This document shows positions 8,131 through 17,740 of a stretch of DNA of 37,215 nucleotides, piece after piece. Made by a program: the position numbers and the translations under genes. The DNA comes from a virus (taxonomy: Duplodnaviria > Heunggongvirae > Uroviricota > Caudoviricetes), in the IMG/VR virus record IMGVR_UViG_2541047928_000009, positions 1 to 37,215 of that record, one strand, 5' to 3'. The notes under the pieces are model-generated. The model was given only the letters and a program-made list of their open reading frames with translations. It did not search any database and was not told the DNA's origin. How positions within the stretch are numbered: position 1 is the stretch's first letter; each line of letters opens with the position of its first letter.

Positions 8131-8240
8131 TTGACGTGATGATTTATTCGGGGCTATATTCCTCACACGCCAGCAAAATCTGGCGTCGGGATTGGAACCC
8201 CGATAATCATCATGGCGCATACCGCGTTAGCGGTTTTTTT
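8131..8240 (+). ncRNA. Candidate small structured RNA or tRNA-sized cloverleaf-like element: sigma70-like promoter, nested hairpins, intrinsic terminator
   Basis: TTGACG-(17-18 bp)-TATATT at 8131-8160; hairpins CGCCAG/CTGGCG (8168-8185) and TCGGG/CCCGA (8186-8203); 8 bp long-range pairing TGATGATT (8137-8144) with AATCATCA (8205-8212); terminator ACCGC-GTTA-GCGGT-TTTTTTT at 8221-8240; the supplied ORF 8085..8324 runs through this terminator. Confidence 0.35.
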
Positions 8241-8405
8241 ATGCGTAAAGCACTGCTACACCCAAATTATGGTGGGGCGTGCGGGGGAGTCGTAAGACTC
8301 GCCGGATTCCATGGTGACCGGTAGTTCCAACCCTGTACGTCTCACCACCCAATGATTGGAACCAGACGGTGGTGAGTATCCTTAACCTTTAAGGGAACTA
8401 TCACC

Positions 8406-12630: not shown

Positions 12631-13164
12631 ATGAACGCAAAAATCAGATACGGCCTGTCGGCTGCCGTTCTGGCGCTGATTGCTGCAGGCTCGTCTGCTC
12701 CTCAAATACTTGACCAGTTTCTGGATGAAAAAGAGGGTAACCACACTACGGCATACCGCGATGGTTCCGGTATATGGACCATCTGTCGTGGTGCCACAAT
12801 GGTGGATGGTAAGCCCGTCATACCGGGAATGAAGCTGTCGAAGGAAAAATGCGACCAGGTTAACGCTATTGAACGTGATAAGGCGCTGGCATGGGTGGAG
12901 CGCAATATTAAAGTACCACTGACCGAACCACAGAAAGCGGGTATAGCGTCATTTTGTCCCTATAACATTGGCCCCGGTAAGTGTTTCCCGTCGACGTTTT
13001 ATAAGCGGCTGAATGCCGGTGATCGTAAGAGTGCATGTGAGGCGATTCGCTGGTGGATAAAAGATGGTGGGCGCGATTGCCGCATACGTTCAAATAACTG
13101 CTATGGACAGGTTATTCGTCGTGACCAGGAAAGCGCATTAGCCTGTTGGGGGATAGATCAGTGA
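12631..13164 (+). CDS. R: SAR endolysin (T4-lysozyme-like muramidase with N-terminal signal-anchor-release domain)
   Basis: N-terminal Gly/Ala-rich weakly hydrophobic segment [21 protein letters not shown]; catalytic E-x8-D-x5-T spacing in [16 protein letters not shown]; pairs with the pinholin. Confidence 0.75.
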
Positions 13165-13628
13165 GCAGAGTCGCCGCGATTATTTATGCTCTGGTTATCT
13201 GCATCATCGTCTGCCTGTCGTGGGCGGTCAATCATTACCGTGATAACGCCATCGCCTACAAAGAACAGCGTGATAAAAAAGTCAGTGAGCTGAAGCAGGC
13301 GACCGCCACCATTACTGACATGCAGCAACGCCAGCGTGCTGCTGATGTACTCGATGCTAAATACACGAAGGAGTTGGCTGATGCGAAAGCTGAAAATGAT
13401 GCTCTTCGGCGCAAGCTTGATAATGGTGGTCGGGTGCTCGTCAAAGGAAAATGCTCTGTGCCATCCTCAGCCGAAACCTCCAGCGCCTCCGGCATGGGCA
13501 ATGATGCCACCGTCGAACTCTCTCCAGTTGCTGGACGAAACGTTCTCGGTATCCGGGACGGAATCATCAGAGACCAGACAGCACTGAGAACGCTTCAGGA
13601 ATATATCAGGACGCAATGCCTTCGATGA
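13161..13628 (+). CDS. Rz: Rz i-spanin
   Basis: GTG start overlapping the endolysin stop; N-terminal TM segment ([28 protein letters not shown]) and coiled-coil region resembling lambda Rz. Confidence 0.8.
13381..13587 (+). CDS. Rz1: Rz1 o-spanin lipoprotein, embedded in the +1 frame of Rz
   Basis: [22 protein letters not shown] lipobox-like signal followed by a Pro-rich segment [11 protein letters not shown], like lambda Rz1. Confidence 0.75.
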
Positions 13629-13803
13629 TAGAGATAATTTTACTCATCATCCTTCACATCTGGCTCTGTAGACAGGGTGGTGATCACTTCTGGAGTGAAT
13701 CCAGATTAAACATCTCATTGCTGATGCTTAAAGTTGAGCATTTGGCGCGCGGTAAGGGGCTGCGTTTAGATAAGAGCCAGTCATCACAAACACTAGGATT
13801 TAG

Positions 13804-13828
13804 CCTCGCATTCGCGGGGCTTTTTATT
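13804..13828 (+). terminator. Intrinsic terminator-like hairpin plus T-run downstream of Rz
   Basis: CCUCGC-AUUC-GCGGGG (one G-U pair) followed by CTTTTTATT; it lies inside the supplied ORF 13616..14134, arguing that the ORF's N-terminal part is not coding. Confidence 0.5.
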
Positions 13829-13846
13829 GCAACAAAGGTAAAGACG

Positions 13847-14134
13847 ATGGATGAAGAATATCGTAAAGACCTGCAACTGTGGTTTGGTCTTACGCATGCG
13901 TCGTTCTGCGTGATGCCGCGAGTATTCATGGAGGCTATGCCTCCAGAATGGCAAGAGAAGATGGCTCAGTTGCTTTTTGAGTATAGCGACACGATCAAAA
14001 CGGATGTCTGCGGAGTTCACAGCTGTTTTGTTACTGCCAAAGACGGCAACAACCGCTTTATGAGGATGCCAGAAGATATTCTGAACTATCGTCATCCTCG
14101 ACGTGAATTCATCGAATCATTTCTGAAGAAGTAG
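13847..14134 (+). CDS. Hypothetical protein (95 aa) downstream of the lysis genes
   Basis: ATG at 13847 preceded by AAAGGTAAAG; Cys/His-containing; no family recognised; the longer form from 13616 was rejected because of the internal terminator. Confidence 0.45.
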   Translation: MDEEYRKDLQLWFGLTHASFCVMPRVFMEAMPPEWQEKMAQLLFEYSDTIKTDVCGVHSCFVTAKDGNNRFMRMPEDILNYRHPRREFIESFLKK

Positions 14135-14485
14135 CCATTACAAAGCCTATCTACGGGTGGGTTTGATAATGGCTTATACCCTGCACGGGATAACTTAACT
14201 GATATCCCTTTTAACGGATAAACGGAGCCAACAATGGCAGAGAATGTCGGCATTATGGCAGTGAAATTTGGATAAATCGGGGATTAGAAAGATAGAGGCG
14301 AGCCGGTCAGGTAGAAATGAATCAGGCTCAAAGTGAAGCGGAAAAGGTCTGTGGCACAAACTGATGCTGCCATAATTACAGCCTGATGACTTGTGGAATG
14401 AAACATGTTGAACCTCCTTAATTGATGTGATTCGAGTGAGGAAGGCATTCTGTCCTTCTATAGTGTCCAGTAAATCAAACAGGAA

Positions 14486-14509
14486 GCTTGTCTCACGTGT
14501 GAGACAAGC
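14486..14509. promoter_or_regulatory. Perfect 24 bp palindrome GCTTGTCTCACGTGTGAGACAAGC (CACGTG core), candidate protein-binding site or structure
   Basis: Directly visible; 11 bp arms around a GT centre; flanked by further inverted repeats at 14520-14552 (GAGTTGTA/TACAACTC and AACTCTT/AAGAGTT). Confidence 0.5.
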
Positions 14510-14628
14510 CTCTCCATTAGCGAGTTGTATTGATTACAACTCTTCAAAGAGTTCATTACTGGGTAGATGAAAATAGTTTCACGACGAATGGAGGAGACTA
14601 TGTCGGTGGCTTCTTCATTGGAGTACAT

Positions 14629-15000
14629 ATGCCCCCACGAACCCCAAAAACCTGCCGTGTTCGCGGCTACCGCAATACCACCACAGATCCGTCAGGCTAT
14701 TGCAAAAGCCACAAAAGCGAAGGCTGGAAGCAATACAAGCCGGGCCAGTCCTGTCATCAGCGCGGTTATGGTTCGCGAGGTTGTCCCTCATGCTCGCCAG
14801 TCCTGTGCGGGGGTGGAAGAAACAGGACACTCACACAGATTCTTGTGGGTCGATGCTATTCCTTTCTGGATTATCCCGATGCCATTCATGCAAGGGCTGT
14901 ATAAGACGTTCGTCATGGCTGTCAGGCTGACGGGTCCTCCCGGTGGGGTGGCCTGCCACGGGGCGGGAGCGTCGCGGAAAAAGGCTAGTTTTTGCATTTT
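14629..15000 (+). pseudogene. Decayed HNH endonuclease-like remnant upstream of the terminase genes
   Basis: Frame 1 encodes MPPRTPKTCRVRGYRNTTTDPSGYCKSHKSEGWKQYKPGQS.HQRGYGSRG, resembling the N-terminus of small terminase-associated HNH proteins; downstream HNH-like fragments (VDAIPF for VDHIIP; SRCHSCKG) appear in other frames and zinc/catalytic positions look substituted; from memory, not searched. Confidence 0.4.
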
Positions 15001-15146
15001 TATCGGCCACCATCATCTTTGCACCTTATTGATTATTAATGGTTATTTGTTTTTTGCATGTCGAATTGAGTGTTTTTTGTTCGACATCGAACGCGTTTTC
15101 TTAAAGTTGTTCGCACGATGCATGTTTAAAGCTCTCCGGAGGAAAT

Positions 15147-15638
15147 ATGGATCATGAGTTGAAAAACCTGGTGCTGAATATTAATCAACTGGCGGCTTTA
15201 TCTGGTCTGCACCGCCAGACTGTCGTGGCAAGACTGAAAAACATTCGTCCCGCTGGTGGACATGACAAACTCAAGCTATACCGGTTGACCGATATTCTGA
15301 CTGAATTTATGGGGTTACCACCGCCGGTTGCTGAGGGCGAAATGGATCCACATGAACGCAAAGCCTGGTATCAGTCTGAACGTGAGCGTCTTAAGTTCGA
15401 ACAGGAAACGGCACAACTCATTCCGGCCAGTGATGTCAGACGGGAGTTTGCCATCTGGGCAAAAGCGGTCGTGCAGGTGCTGGAGACATTACCGGATATT
15501 CTGGAACGTGACTGCGGTCTGCAGCCTGCCGCTGTGAGCCGTGTTCAGTCCATTATTGATGATCTGCGCGATCAGATAGCCCTGCGGGTGACCGAAGCAG
15601 GTGCGGATGATGAGGAGGAATTACAGCAGGAGGAGTAA
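15147..15638 (+). CDS. Terminase small subunit (Nu1-like, N-terminal HTH)
   Basis: N-terminal LNINQLAALSGLHRQTVVARLKN resembles the Nu1 HTH; immediately upstream of the gpA-like large subunit, with ATG/TAA overlap. Confidence 0.75.
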   Translation: MDHELKNLVLNINQLAALSGLHRQTVVARLKNIRPAGGHDKLKLYRLTDILTEFMGLPPPVAEGEMDPHERKAWYQSERERLKFEQETAQLIPASDVRREFAIWAKAVVQVLETLPDILERDCGLQPAAVSRVQSIIDDLRDQIALRVTEAGADDEEELQQEE

Positions 15639-17740
15639 TGCTGAATCAGGAAACCGCAAAGGCAGCACGAACCGATTCAGGTTATATCCTTCGCGCACCG
15701 AGACGAATGCGGGTTGCTGATGCCGTTGCTCAGTATATGCGGGTGCCCATGGGGGCAGGGAACTCAGTCCCGTGGGATCCGCTGGTGGCACCGTATGTTA
15801 TTGAGCCGATGAACTGCCTGGCCTCGCGTGAATACGACGCAGTGATATTTGTTGGCCCGGCACGAACCGGCAAGACTATCGGCCTGATTGACGGCTGGGT
15901 GATTTACAACGTGATTTGCGATCCTGCTGATATGCTGATCATTCAGATGACGGAGGAAAAAGCCCGCGAACACTCCAAAAAACGACTCGCCAGAACGTTT
16001 CGCGTCAGCCCGGAAGTGGTCAGTCGCCTGAGTCCGAACAAAAATGACAACAACGTTTATGACAGAACATTCCTTGCTGGTAACTACCTGAAAATCGGCT
16101 GGCCGTCAGTCAATATCATGTCCTCATCAGATTATAAATGCGTCGCGCTGACGGATTATGACCGTTTTCCGGAAGATATTGATGGCGAGGGGGATGCTTT
16201 CTCTCTTGCCTCAAAACGTACCACCACATTTATGTCCAGTGGTATGACGCTGGTGGAGAGTTCCCCCGGCAGGGATGTGAAGGATGTGAAATGGCGACGG
16301 ACTTCACCGCATGAGGCTCCACCAACCACGGGGATCCTGTCGCTCTATAACCGTGGTGATCGCCGTCGCTGGTACTGGCCCTGTCCACACTGTGGTGAGT
16401 ATTTTCAGCCCTGCGGCGATGTGGTTGCTGGTTTCCGTGATATTGCCGATCCCGTGCTGGCAAGTGAGGCGGCTTATATTCAGTGTCCTTCCTGTTCAGG
16501 ACGGATTATGCCTGAACAAAAACGTGAGCTGAACGGACGTGGGGTCTGGTTGCGGGATGGTGAATCCATCAATGCGGATGGCAGTCGTTATGGTGATCCC
16601 CGACGCTCACGTATTGCGTCATTCTGGATGGAGGGTCCGGCAGCTGCTTACCAGACACTCTCGCAACTCGTTTACAAACTGCTTACTGCAGAACAGGAAT
16701 ACGAGACAACCGGAAGTGAAGAAACACTCAAGACGGTTATCAATACCGACTGGGGATTACCTTATCTTCCCCGCGCCAGCATGGAGCAACGAAAAAGTGA
16801 ACTGCTTGAGCAGCGGGCAGAGCCAGTTCCTTCCCGCAGTGTGCCGGATGGCGTTAATTTCCTTGTGGCGACAGTGGATGTGCAGGCGGGACGTCATCGC
16901 CGTTTTGTGGTTCAGGTAACGGGCTATGGCAGCCGTGGCGAACGCTGGATTATTGATCGTTACAACATCACGCAGTCATTGCGCGGTGACAGTGACGGGG
17001 AGAGCCAGCGAATTGATCCGGCCAGCTATCCGGAAGACTGGGATGTCCTGCTGACGGATGTTTTTCATAAAAGCTGGCCGCTGGCCTCCGATCCTTCTCA
17101 ACAAATGCGACTGATGGCAATGGCGGTGGACTCCGGCGGTGAAGACGGGGTCACTGATAATGCCTATAAATTCTGGCGTCGTTGCCGTCGTGATGGCCTT
17201 GGTAAACGTATTTACCTGTTTAAGGGCGACAGCATCCGGCGCGCAAAACTGATCACCCGTACATTCCCTGATAACACCGGACGAACGGGCCGACGGGCGC
17301 AGGCCGCAGGTGATGTGCCGCTCTGGCTTCTTCAGACGGATGCACTGAAAGACCGGGTGAATAACGCGTTATGGCGTGACTCGCCAGGTCCCGGCTATGT
17401 GCATTTCCCTGACTGGCTGGGGAGCTGGTTTTACGACGAACTGACGTATGAAGAGCGGAGCAGTGACGGGAAATGGAGTAAGCCGGGTCGCGGTGCCAAC
17501 GAAGCTTTTGACCTGATGGTGTATGCCGATGCTCTGGTCATTCTGCATGGATACGAAAAGATCCGCTGGCCGGATGCACCGGAGTGGGCGAGCCGGGAAA
17601 CCTGGCTGGAGTGTGTCCAGGACAGTACCGAACCGTCATCCTCACCGGAACCGGTATCCACGCCTGTTAAAAAACAAAAACGGAAGAAAACAGTAACTGA
17701 CGATGTTAACCCCTGGCTGACTTCCGGAGGATGGTTATGA
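15638..17740 (+). CDS. Terminase large subunit (lambda gpA-like ATPase/endonuclease)
   Basis: 700 aa; Walker A-like VGPARTGKT; CPHCGEYFQPCGD zinc-ribbon-like motif comparable to the lambda gpA ACPHCGEEQYLKFGD. Confidence 0.85.
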   Translation: MLNQETAKAARTDSGYILRAPRRMRVADAVAQYMRVPMGAGNSVPWDPLVAPYVIEPMNCLASREYDAVIFVGPARTGKTIGLIDGWVIYNVICDPADMLIIQMTEEKAREHSKKRLARTFRVSPEVVSRLSPNKNDNNVYDRTFLAGNYLKIGWPSVNIMSSSDYKCVALTDYDRFPEDIDGEGDAFSLASKRTTTFMSSGMTLVESSPGRDVKDVKWRRTSPHEAPPTTGILSLYNRGDRRRWYWPCPHCGEYFQPCGDVVAGFRDIADPVLASEAAYIQCPSCSGRIMPEQKRELNGRGVWLRDGESINADGSRYGDPRRSRIASFWMEGPAAAYQTLSQLVYKLLTAEQEYETTGSEETLKTVINTDWGLPYLPRASMEQRKSELLEQRAEPVPSRSVPDGVNFLVATVDVQAGRHRRFVVQVTGYGSRGERWIIDRYNITQSLRGDSDGESQRIDPASYPEDWDVLLTDVFHKSWPLASDPSQQMRLMAMAVDSGGEDGVTDNAYKFWRRCRRDGLGKRIYLFKGDSIRRAKLITRTFPDNTGRTGRRAQAAGDVPLWLLQTDALKDRVNNALWRDSPGPGYVHFPDWLGSWFYDELTYEERSSDGKWSKPGRGANEAFDLMVYADALVILHGYEKIRWPDAPEWASRETWLECVQDSTEPSSSPEPVSTPVKKQKRKKTVTDDVNPWLTSGGWL

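Follow-up and report, generated by a model that had tools for sequence, protein, structure and literature searches.

What occupies the 1 kb that precedes the terminase genes of this E. coli prophage, where a conspicuous palindrome stands beside a broken HNH endonuclease gene, and do the two belong to the packaging signal? The region (positions 14135–15146) lies in a window of 37,215 nucleotides, the whole stretch of DNA analysed (IMG/VR record IMGVR_UViG_2541047928_000009). A sequence-only reading had proposed that the HNH gene decayed in place through frameshifts and point mutations and that the palindrome may form part of the cos/packaging signal or bind a regulator. Comparison with related phages indicates that the region is very probably a modular-recombination scar at which two kinds of lambdoid phage were joined. 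Reading toward the terminase, the blocks are the tail of a spanin gene, two conserved hairpins, a 50-codon HNH stump, and a lambda-type cos. The region is an ordinary recombination patchwork, with nothing unusual for lambdoid mosaicism.

Mosaic boundaries and recombination junctions

Alignment with related phages reveals abrupt changes of homology within the region. In particular, positions 14134–14222 match mEp460 and PhiR40_1, both of which lack the block at 14223–14760; positions 14245–14775 match SfIV (86%) and 813R8-type phages (93–94%); and, from 14761 on, the sequence matches PhiR40_1 (99%) and mEp460 (86%). SfIV-type homology stops at 14775 and mEp460/PhiR40_1-type homology begins at 14761, an overlap of 15 nt that places the right recombination junction at 14761–14775. 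Specifically, the alignment shows that the microhomology CGCG(G/T)TTATGGTTCG is common to HNH codons 44–49 and to the mEp460-type right arm. The right junction was found in 37 of 5426 complete E. coli genomes, and the left junction is located at about 14244. Downstream of the right junction, positions 14776–14960 (plus strand) correspond to a lambda/mEp460-type genome right end, including cosQ (98–99% identity to PhiR40_1 and 86% to mEp460). The native order in relatives is lysis genes, iss/bor, the block, an intact HNH gene, a gene for a P27-family small terminase subunit (TerS), and a gene for an HK97-type large subunit (TerL).

These boundaries suggest that an SfIV/HK97-type block was joined at its right side to a lambda/mEp460-type genome right end by a crossover inside the HNH gene, at the 15-nt microhomology. 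Such a crossover would have left an HNH stump without its catalytic domain, followed directly on the 3′ side by a complete lambda-type cos (cosQ, cosN, and cosB) and then by a DUF1441 TerS and a gpA-type TerL, the terminase that would use that cos. An HK97-type packaging module would thereby have been swapped for a lambda-type module, and the palindrome and the adjacent hairpin would be passengers of the imported block, their native place being the leader upstream of HNH. Judging from the distribution among phages, the block may have been inserted into an mEp460-like phage, or PhiR40_1-like phages may have lost it by deletion. Sharp homology breakpoints between or inside genes, with joints at short shared sequences, are those of lambdoid modular mosaicism in general, from which this case differs in no unusual respect; the joint happens to fall within a gene, so a stump was left behind.

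The left flank begins with a post-lysis linker (14134–14243, plus strand; 88–90% identity to L002, L003, and L004) that is common to mEp460, PhiR40_1, Ayreon, and HK97, and whose stem-loop at 14133–14174 (inverted repeat I4) is annotated as a terminator in Ayreon. Next to it lies a 3′ remnant of an SfIV-type overlapped o-spanin (Rz1) gene, a pseudogene fragment comprising the last 30 codons (14244–14336, plus strand). Specifically, tblastn to SfIVp53, which matches PHROG 456 'Rz-like spanin', gives 24/30 identity (E = 4e-14), with an in-frame stop replacing Cys, and PGAP calls the homologous stretch partial Rz1 in strain MLI107. Compared with the overlapped o-spanins (Rz1, PHROG 456) of SfIV and Klebsiella lambdoid phages, the remnant is 80% identical over these codons and ends at the identical stop position, but lacks the N-terminal lipoprotein part and contains an internal stop. 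The working spanin genes of the window are located further upstream, at 13146–13628. Two structural readings of this flank were rejected: a long-range stem pairing 14252–14261 with 14367–14376 (I14), which is absent in SfIV and 813R8 and falls in the spanin-gene tail; and a conserved non-coding RNA at 14245–14345, where the sequence is Rz1 C-terminal coding sequence dual-coded with a small ORF.

The HNH remnant

The 5′ remnant of an HK97/SfIV-type HNH endonuclease gene, a pseudogene comprising codons 1–50, is located at 14629–14778 (plus strand). As the sequence-only reading had noticed, the frame starting at 14629 encodes an HNH-like N-terminus: 42 of 50 residues (84%) are identical to the SfIV HNH protein (SfIV gp54; tblastn, E = 1e-32), and the remnant matches PHROG 144 'HNH endonuclease' (E = 1e-8). 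Its classification as a pseudogene is likewise sound; codons 1–50 are all that is left. The remnant is already known, being annotated in RefSeq as a partial HNH pseudogene; in strain EC9682, PGAP describes exactly the remnant's coordinates as 'HNH endonuclease, incomplete, missing C-terminus'.

The manner of loss differs from the one proposed. HNH fragments had been reported in different frames; when all frames of 14400–15200 were searched by permissive, frameshift-tolerant tblastn (word size 2, E up to 1000), similarity to HNH stopped at residue 50. The Pfam HNH domain, residues 66–112 of the intact SfIV protein, is wholly absent, and the gene appears to have been cleanly truncated at its 3′ end by recombination at the microhomology, rather than decayed by frameshifts. 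The three overlapping ORFs that had been taken to split the gene (14530..14904, 14567..15157, and 14700..14930) are not genes: they have no Pfam matches, nor does the 91-aa ORF of the stump, and the reading frame beyond the junction ends at varying lengths among relatives (76–131 aa), indicating that there is no coding constraint there. Key Cys/His positions had been described as substituted, which is correct for one N-terminal zinc-ribbon Cys, a zinc ligand lost through C14Y, but not for the catalytic motif, which is absent. C14Y is one of four remnant-specific changes (A8T, C14Y, E26K, and R42C) common to all truncated HNH copies.

The stump resembles HK97 gp74-type HNH proteins (PF01844) in its first 50 residues, which are homologous and include the CxxxxC...CxxH zinc-ribbon region, and in its placement just ahead of terminase genes. 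It differs from them in having no beta-beta-alpha-metal core (His-Asn-His, paired CxxC), in the lost zinc ligand, and in its neighbour: relatives with an intact HNH carry Terminase_4 and TerL_ATPase/TerL_nuclease, whereas the window pairs a DUF1441 TerS with a GpA-type TerL. With the catalytic domain and a zinc ligand lost, and with a terminase of a different type, the stump is best regarded as a relic and not as a functional member of the HNH group. In HK97-type phages, HNH aids a terminase that depends on it for cos cleavage. A gpA-type terminase relies on a nuclease domain of its own to nick cosN, so the stump would be unneeded here and is probably both non-functional and dispensable.

The cos site and the terminase

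A lambda-type cos of the prophage is predicted at about 14930–15146. The earlier suggestion that cos lies within this 1-kb region is thus upheld: alignment with lambda and cdtI puts it at 14932–15146. In particular, a cosQ heptamer, GGGTCCT, is present at 14932–14938, opposite an identical heptamer in the aligned lambda, cdtI, and Tritos sequences, and the cosN cohesive end, GGGCGGGAGCGT, is at 14961–14972 (plus strand), as indicated by alignment with lambda and cdtI and by the record ends of cdtI and Tritos. CosN and its flanks are identical in cdtI and Tritos; position 14961 corresponds to the first base of both records, and position 14960 to the last base of the Tritos record. Homology to lambda, together with the way in which the cdtI and Tritos records were deposited, predicts a top-strand nick between 14960 and 14961 that would yield a 12-nt 5′ overhang, GGGCGGGAGCGT. 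The site combines a related cosN at the genome terminus of relatives, a cosQ, and an adjoining gpA-type TerL. The record ends of mEp460 and Ayreon (equivalent to window position 15121) were considered as an alternative cos and rejected, the authors of Ayreon having chosen an arbitrary point ahead of TerS at which to open that genome (PMC5764929).

The predicted site shares with lambda cos the cosQ heptamer GGGTCCT approximately 22 nt ahead of the nick, the nick surroundings (ACG/GGGCGG...CGCGG, with the slash marking the nick), and an AT-rich, repeat-bearing stretch of approximately 175 bp ahead of the TerS gene. The lambda sequence at the aligned cosN position, GGGCGGCGACCT, differs from the cohesive end here at bases 7, 8, 9, and 11. 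Among lambda-like phages, the 7-bp cosQ is highly conserved, and cohesive-end bases 7–12 commonly differ (PMC4669245). The presumed cosB (14973–15146, plus strand) is AT-rich, has the position of lambda cosB, and contains direct and inverted repeats: TTTTTGCAT at 14989 and 15051, and ATGTCGAA and TTCGACAT at 15058–15065 and 15080–15087, respectively. These repeats are candidate TerS sites, to which TerS may bind; they are unlike the lambda R sites, to which the 174-bp stretch has no sequence match.

The TerS gene (15147–15638, plus strand) starts 186 nt after the predicted nick, compared with base 191 for lambda Nu1, and its product belongs to the DUF1441 family (Pfam, E = 4.6e-44; PHROG 141 'terminase small subunit', E = 2.7e-77), not to Nu1 as in lambda. 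The TerL gene (15638–17740, plus strand) encodes a protein of the lambda gpA type with, as in lambda, ATPase and nuclease domains (Pfam GpA_ATPase, E = 8.6e-72; GpA_nuclease, E = 1.5e-85), confirming the earlier proposal that a gpA-type terminase with its own nuclease stands beside the HNH pseudogene. In terminases of this type, the nuclease domain nicks cosN after TerS binds cosB (PMC4669245).

The palindrome, which had been suggested to be part of cos, belongs to the SfIV-type block, approximately 450 bp upstream of cos. In intact relatives, the palindrome-bearing block precedes HNH and cos follows it; in SfIV, for example, 58 bp separate HNH from the end of the record. The palindrome is absent from PhiR40_1, although the packaging module of that phage is 99% identical from 14761, and absence from phages with the same packaging module is what the sequence-only reading had named beforehand as refuting its proposal. 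Decay of the HNH gene in place, next to a packaging signal that contains the palindrome, has in its favour the genuine N-terminal similarity, the substitution of one zinc-ligand Cys, and the adjacency of HNH genes to cos and terminase genes (PMC3592412). We nevertheless consider it highly improbable: HNH similarity ends at residue 50 in every frame, the DNA after 14761 has its homologues in phages in which no HNH gene ever stood there, cos maps downstream, and PhiR40_1 lacks the palindrome.

Hairpins upstream of the HNH remnant

The palindrome, hairpin 1 (14483–14512, either strand), had been described as a perfect 24-bp palindrome. A 24-bp core is indeed present at 14486–14509, but it is not perfect: two 11-nt arms flank a 2-nt GT centre (positions 12 and 13) that is not self-complementary. 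A repeat search extends the arms to 14 nt (14483–14496 and 14499–14512; 93% complementary, 2 nt apart), and no short-spacer inverted repeat of the 37-kb window is longer; 2 of 100 dinucleotide shuffles produced arms of 11 nt or more. Hairpin 1 shows covariation, with four pairs in which both partners have changed and pairing retained in 90.7% of cells; the non-Watson-Crick cells comprise both U-G, readable from the plus strand, and C-A, readable from the minus strand, so that hairpin 1 could act from either strand or as DNA. Related hairpins, ending GACAAGCC(C/T)NTCC, are present in Klebsiella phages, and HK97 has the 14134–14243 linker upstream of gp74 but no hairpins. When viral contigs were scanned for TGTC-N10-GACAAGCC-NN-TCC beyond the variants already known, 45 loci came back, nearly all of them stemless chance matches; only the Klebsiella-type relatives are real.

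The two overlapping inverted repeats that had been noted after the palindrome are both present. Hairpin 2 (14522–14542, plus strand) has an 8-bp stem, formed by GAGTTGTA (14522–14529) with TACAACTC (14535–14542), and a TTGAT loop. Pair 48–60 occurs as U-A, U-G, and C-G, and pair 50–58 occurs as U-A and U-G; the U-G variants preserve pairing only when read as plus-strand RNA, the form in which hairpin 2 would pair in the late transcript. Hairpin 3 (14538–14553, plus strand), formed by AACTCTT (14538–14544) with AAGAGTT (14547–14553), overlaps hairpin 2 and is specific to the lineage of the window; its pairing is broken (AAGAATT) in SfIV, 813R8, and most other variants. RNA folding of 14440–14640 gives z = −3.57 relative to shuffles; by this and by the arm-length comparison, the hairpins depart significantly from shuffled sequence. 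A search of 14100–15200 against Rfam 15, with gathering or permissive settings, yielded no family at threshold and only chance-level scores (ST7-OT4_3, 25.7 bits, threshold 50; CRISPR direct repeat, 16.5 bits, threshold 42).

The palindrome and the adjacent hairpin are most likely nucleic-acid stem-loops retained by selection for pairing, and they may act on mRNA stability or processing, although template-switch correction of quasi-palindromes could preserve hairpin symmetry without selection. An operator bound by a dimeric regulator, governing the small ORF on the minus strand and, in the opposite direction, the packaging genes on the plus strand, would account for the conservation of the outer half-sites CTTGTC and GACAAG, the most conserved positions across the E. 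coli, Shigella, and Klebsiella versions, and for a further half-site-like TGTCCA at 14464–14469. The variable inner 8–10 bp, however, keep their self-complementarity by double changes, which base pairing would require and the spacer of a protein-binding site would not. No candidate regulator emerged, and an operator seems improbable. We are similarly doubtful of an intrinsic terminator. On the plus strand, no U tract follows the palindrome. On the minus strand, a consensus scan gives a 13-bp stem followed by CTGTTTGATT, and minus-strand genes of relatives (the small ORF and iss/bor) are located just beyond, so a terminator there might shield the small ORF (and iss/bor in relatives) from antisense read-in or end a short antisense RNA opposite the HNH leader; yet the U-rich tail, itself weak, is not kept in the SfIV or Klebsiella versions, the conserved flank GCC(C/T)NTCC sits on the opposite side, and no promoter-like site is present on either strand of 13600–15300.

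A conserved antisense small ORF

The only mildly novel item of the region is a candidate unannotated gene of 40 aa (MFHSTSHQAVIMAASVCATDLFRFTLSLIHFYLTGSPLSF; 14406..14284, minus strand), antisense to the spanin tail, with a Shine-Dalgarno sequence, AAGGAGG, 6 nt ahead of its ATG. The ORF is unbroken in 105 loci (24 unique sequences). In its C-terminal 17 codons, variable sites number 1/1/6 at the three codon positions (pN = 0; pS = 0.07–0.22). In Klebsiella phages, the ORF has other N-termini but keeps the C-terminal motif, and its Shine-Dalgarno sequences are strong. Searches of PHROG, NCBIfam, and 5.8 billion proteins assigned the ORF to no named family; the few predictions retrieved are labelled 'hypothetical protein', and the ORF matches no known toxin family. 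Comparison with type I toxin–antitoxin modules (a small hydrophobic toxin and an antisense RNA) shows a strong Shine-Dalgarno sequence and GRAVY values of 0.45 to 1.54 across the versions; in the E. coli version, no stretch forms a clean hydrophobic helix of 20 residues, and the region has no Rfam match. A sigma-70 promoter scan of 13600–15300 gave 0 sites, and therefore neither the small ORF nor a putative sRNA has an assigned promoter. Hand-searched −35/−10 candidates near TATAGT (14459–14464) were dropped for want of a −35 element. A second minus-strand ORF (14458..14628, 56 aa), which overlaps the palindrome, was also set aside, having a 1-nt deletion in SfIV and no meaningful Pfam match.

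It is quite possible, if short of probable, that the small ORF arose by chance and that its conservation echoes constraint from the overlapping ancestral spanin gene. Its length is only 40 codons, it is seldom predicted by gene callers, it has no family match, and its N-terminal 22 codons have pN of 0.29, exceeding pS of 0.09–0.16, between the window and SfIV types. Against this, the substitutions in the overlap fall at third positions of the ORF, which are second positions of the spanin frame, and hence alter the spanin protein and leave the small protein unaltered. Moreover, the Shine-Dalgarno sequence and ATG are invariant amid an otherwise variable stretch, all four N-terminal versions (E. 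coli and Klebsiella) have strong Shine-Dalgarno sequences, and the ORF remains intact where the spanin gene is truncated. The small ORF may be a real gene; the fuller proposal, in which the upstream CTTGTC...GACAAG hairpin or hairpins serve as its control element and the two form a small membrane-protein- or toxin-like module, is tentative, and we rate it as rather unlikely.

Discussion

The reading of the region as a recombination scar yields a corrected map of the prophage, in which cos occupies 14932–15146, with the nick predicted after 14960, and in which both the HNH stump and the spanin tail count as pseudogene fragments. The locus is a textbook case of the exchange of packaging modules between lambdoid phages, the joint having left a datable scar common to 37 sequenced E. 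coli genomes. Wider value is possible only in the conserved antisense small ORF and the covarying hairpins, which are unannotated and widespread (632 of 5426 E. coli genomes, approximately 12%). If the small-ORF module were real, its retention would explain why the block survived recombination intact, and about 12% of E. coli genomes, as well as Klebsiella phages, would carry the module.

The HNH gene upstream of the terminase is truncated at a recombination joint

The window is a lambdoid prophage of E. coli; over positions 13600–15700, the chromosomes of strains EC9682 and W224N match it at 99.6% identity. The gene order is lysozyme (12631–13164), Rz (13146–13628), a 95-aa ORF (13847–14134, plus strand), the region under study (14135–15146), a DUF1441-family small terminase, TerS (15147–15638), and a gpA-type large terminase (15638–17740) containing Pfam GpA_ATPase and GpA_nuclease domains.

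A sequence-only reading had proposed an HNH-like peptide starting at 14629, and this peptide is present (42/50 residues identical to SfIV gp54; PHROG 144 at E = 1e-8). The same reading saw HNH fragments in several frames and decay by frameshifting. When two intact HNH proteins were searched by tblastn, at very permissive settings, against all frames of 14400–15200, residues 1–50 alone were detected and nothing beyond, indicating truncation instead. The Pfam HNH domain comprises residues 66–112 of the intact SfIV protein, so the catalytic part is wholly missing. The proposed pseudogene beside a self-sufficient gpA-type terminase is thereby upheld. Pfam searches of the three ORFs across which the gene had been split gave no hits, and one of these ORFs spans the cos cleavage site.

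DNA homology to SfIV-type phages covers 14245–14775, and homology to PhiR40_1 (99%) and mEp460 (86%) runs from 14761 on, through the terminase genes; both of the latter also match 14134–14222 and lack the window sequence between there and 14761. The two homologies overlap by 15 nt, CGCG(G/T)TTATGGTTCG, common to HNH codons 44–49 and the mEp460-type right arm, which identifies the joint as a microhomology crossover. Relative to intact genes, substitutions A8T, C14Y, E26K, and R42C are present in every truncated copy among 100-odd related loci, and the reading frames past the junction differ in end length among copies, a pattern that fits one ancestral truncation followed by neutral drift. Among 5426 complete E. 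coli genomes, 37 have the junction. The region is an ordinary mosaic joint, and its main element was already known: the RefSeq pipeline annotates exactly 14629–14778 as 'HNH endonuclease, incomplete, missing C-terminus'.

Directly 3′ of the intact Rz, PGAP annotation of near-identical genomes also places an incomplete second i-spanin Rz as a pseudogene ('missing C-terminus'; 13616–13765, plus strand), which is another recombination scar in the same stretch. The 95-aa ORF (WP_000343116), near which a terminator-like hairpin is located (13802–13821), aligns only to the C-terminal part of PHROG 3527 (positions 139–230 of 233), a family without known function, and 13831–14133 is missing from mEp460, PhiR40_1, and Ayreon; the ORF is thus either a moron that was inserted or one more gene fragment. 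The late region is preceded by an isrK-type regulatory RNA pair, comprising an isrK Hfq-binding sRNA (8167–8240, plus strand, 72.2 bits) and, directly after it, a C4 antisense RNA (8265–8352, plus strand, 84.3 bits), both above the Rfam gathering score.

Origin and content of the imported block

The SfIV/HK97-type block has its left junction at ~14244, just past a linker (14134–14243) common to mEp460, PhiR40_1, and HK97, and is carried by 632 of 5426 E. coli genomes. In its native order, lysis genes and iss/bor (minus strand) precede the block, and an intact 116-aa HNH gene, a P27-family TerS, and an HK97-type TerL follow it. The strikingly conserved left part was considered as an RNA element and rejected: 14244–14336 codes for the C-terminal 30 residues of an overlapped-type o-spanin; 24 of the 30 are shared with SfIVp53, and a stop stands in place of a Cys. 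SfIVp53 is an Rz-like spanin by PHROG match, Klebsiella phage Kp4864-1 has a full-length homologue with a lipobox, and PGAP calls a partial Rz1 on the same stretch in one genome.

A tandem duplication of 14406–14692 (287 bp), spanning the HNH start together with the palindrome and hairpins, is found in several further E. coli genomes and viral contigs (loci L006, L007, L034, L036, L041, L043, L074, and L085); its left edge is the ATG of a small minus-strand ORF. In SfIV-like contigs L032, L047, L061, and L091, an insert of ~326 bp separates the hairpin leader from the HNH start codon (between window equivalents 14603 and 14604).

Position of the cos site

Alignment with the joined lambda ends and with the termini of the cdtI and Tritos records locates cos nearby, as had been suggested. 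Across the nick, the window reads GACGGGTCCTCCCGGTGGGGTGGCCTGCCACG followed by GGGCGGGAGCGTCGCGG, and lambda reads TACGGGTCCTTTCCGGTGATCCGACAGGTTACG followed by GGGCGGCGACCTCGCGG. The cdtI and Tritos records open with GGGCGGGAGCGTCGCGGAAAAAGGCTAG, identical to the window from 14961 onward, and the last bases of the Tritos record, CCTGCCACG, end at the equivalent of 14960. By homology, cosQ would be GGGTCCT (14932–14938), the predicted top-strand nick lies between 14960 and 14961, and the predicted cohesive end is GGGCGGGAGCGT (14961–14972). The cohesive end differs from that of lambda at bases 7, 8, 9, and 11; bases 7–12 commonly vary among lambda-like phages, and the 7-bp cosQ is highly conserved among them (Feiss et al., PMC4669245). 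The 174 bp from cosN to the TerS start codon are AT-rich and contain repeats (TTTTTGCAT twice; ATGTCGAA / TTCGACAT); this stretch is the presumptive place of cosB and TerS binding.

The ends of the mEp460 and Ayreon records (equivalent to 15121) were rejected as cos evidence because the Ayreon genome was opened arbitrarily before TerS by its authors (PMC5764929). At the cosN position (window equivalent 14963–14973), Ayreon has ~150 extra bp (2431–2582 of its locus), including a 72-bp piece 97% identical to the TerS gene interior (window 15477–15548); the extra sequence, an ORF of which is annotated 'putative late gene regulator', probably reflects misassembly at the cohesive ends.

Structure and possible role of the hairpins

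The palindrome at 14486–14509 exists, but not as the perfect 24-mer described earlier: in GCTTGTCTCACGTGTGAGACAAGC, two complementary arms of 11 nt flank a central G-T. No other short-spacer inverted repeat in the window is as long; among 100 dinucleotide-preserving shuffles, only 2 gave arms of 11 nt or more, and 14440–14640 folds better than shuffles (z = −3.57). The two overlapping inverted repeats reported beside it are also present (hairpin 2, 14522–14529 with 14535–14542; hairpin 3, 14538–14544 with 14547–14553).

In an alignment of 14 distinct variants of the 85-nt hairpin stretch, which are closely related and show few independent events, 90.7% of hairpin 1 cells are paired and four pairs are changed on both sides. 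For instance, the window type has U-A/C-G where the 813R8 type has C-G/A-U, and U-A changes to C-G with a C-A intermediate seen. Hairpin 2 stays paired, with U-A, U-G, or C-G at one position and U-A or U-G at a second; such pairing works only in plus-strand RNA. Hairpin 3 is broken in most relatives.

The palindrome had been proposed as part of the packaging signal. It lies ~450 bp upstream of cosN and is absent from PhiR40_1, the packaging module of which is 99% identical, placing it outside the packaging signal of this phage. Our best guess is that the hairpins would be stem-loops in the leader of the late transcript for the HNH-terminase operon, and passengers in the window. A minus-strand terminator or insulator, or a protein operator, is a less probable reading. 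Hairpin 1 mispairs include both U-G and C-A, compatible with either strand. Quasi-palindrome symmetry can persist without selection through template-switch repair. No U tract conserved in the SfIV and Klebsiella versions was found, a scan of both strands of 13600–15300 gave no promoter-like sites, and no Rfam family reached its threshold in 14100–15200.

One or two similar hairpins are present in Klebsiella lambdoid phages whose downstream module differs; their pattern is CTTGTC, a self-complementary core of variable sequence, GACAAG, and GCC(C/T)NTCC. These CTTGTC...GACAAGCC hairpins (L108 3277–3300 and 3340–3366; L109 3274–3294; second hairpin of L110 and L153) are flanked on one side by the spanin genes and on the other by a metalloprotease-like ORF (HExxH), after which comes a different terminase; in L110 and L153 the first copy has decayed, and in L153 the second copy forms a perfect palindrome of 24 bp. 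Block versions from E. coli and from Klebsiella recurrently contain a short hairpin with TATAGT or TATACT directly after it (GGAAGG...CCTTC-TATAGT in the window, with TATAGT at 14459–14464; GAAGAGG...CCTCTTC-TATACT in L109); no −35 element was found beside it. In locus L015, block homology stops exactly at the palindrome centre (CTTGTCCAACGTG; 14499 equivalent), with unrelated sequence after it, well inside the contig; recombination or breakage may occur at this centre.

A candidate small gene antisense to the spanin tail

The small minus-strand ORF (14406..14284; 40 codons) is antisense to the spanin tail and has AAGGAGG 6 nt upstream of its ATG. The Shine-Dalgarno/ATG stretch is invariant across the window, SfIV, and 813R8 within a variable segment, and the ORF is intact in 105/105 related loci (24 unique sequences). 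In the C-terminal 17 codons, variable sites number 1/1/6 by codon position (pN = 0); these third positions serve as second positions of the spanin frame, and the changes therefore alter the spanin peptide and not the small protein. Klebsiella versions have unrelated hydrophobic N-termini and a strong Shine-Dalgarno sequence, and they share the C-terminal motif ...LSL[IA]H[FY]YLTG[SY]PLSF. A real gene is plausible but unproven; against it, pN exceeds pS in the N-terminal half, the ORF has no family hit, and gene predictors rarely call it. Of the whole region, only this small ORF and the hairpins that covary might repay experiments.
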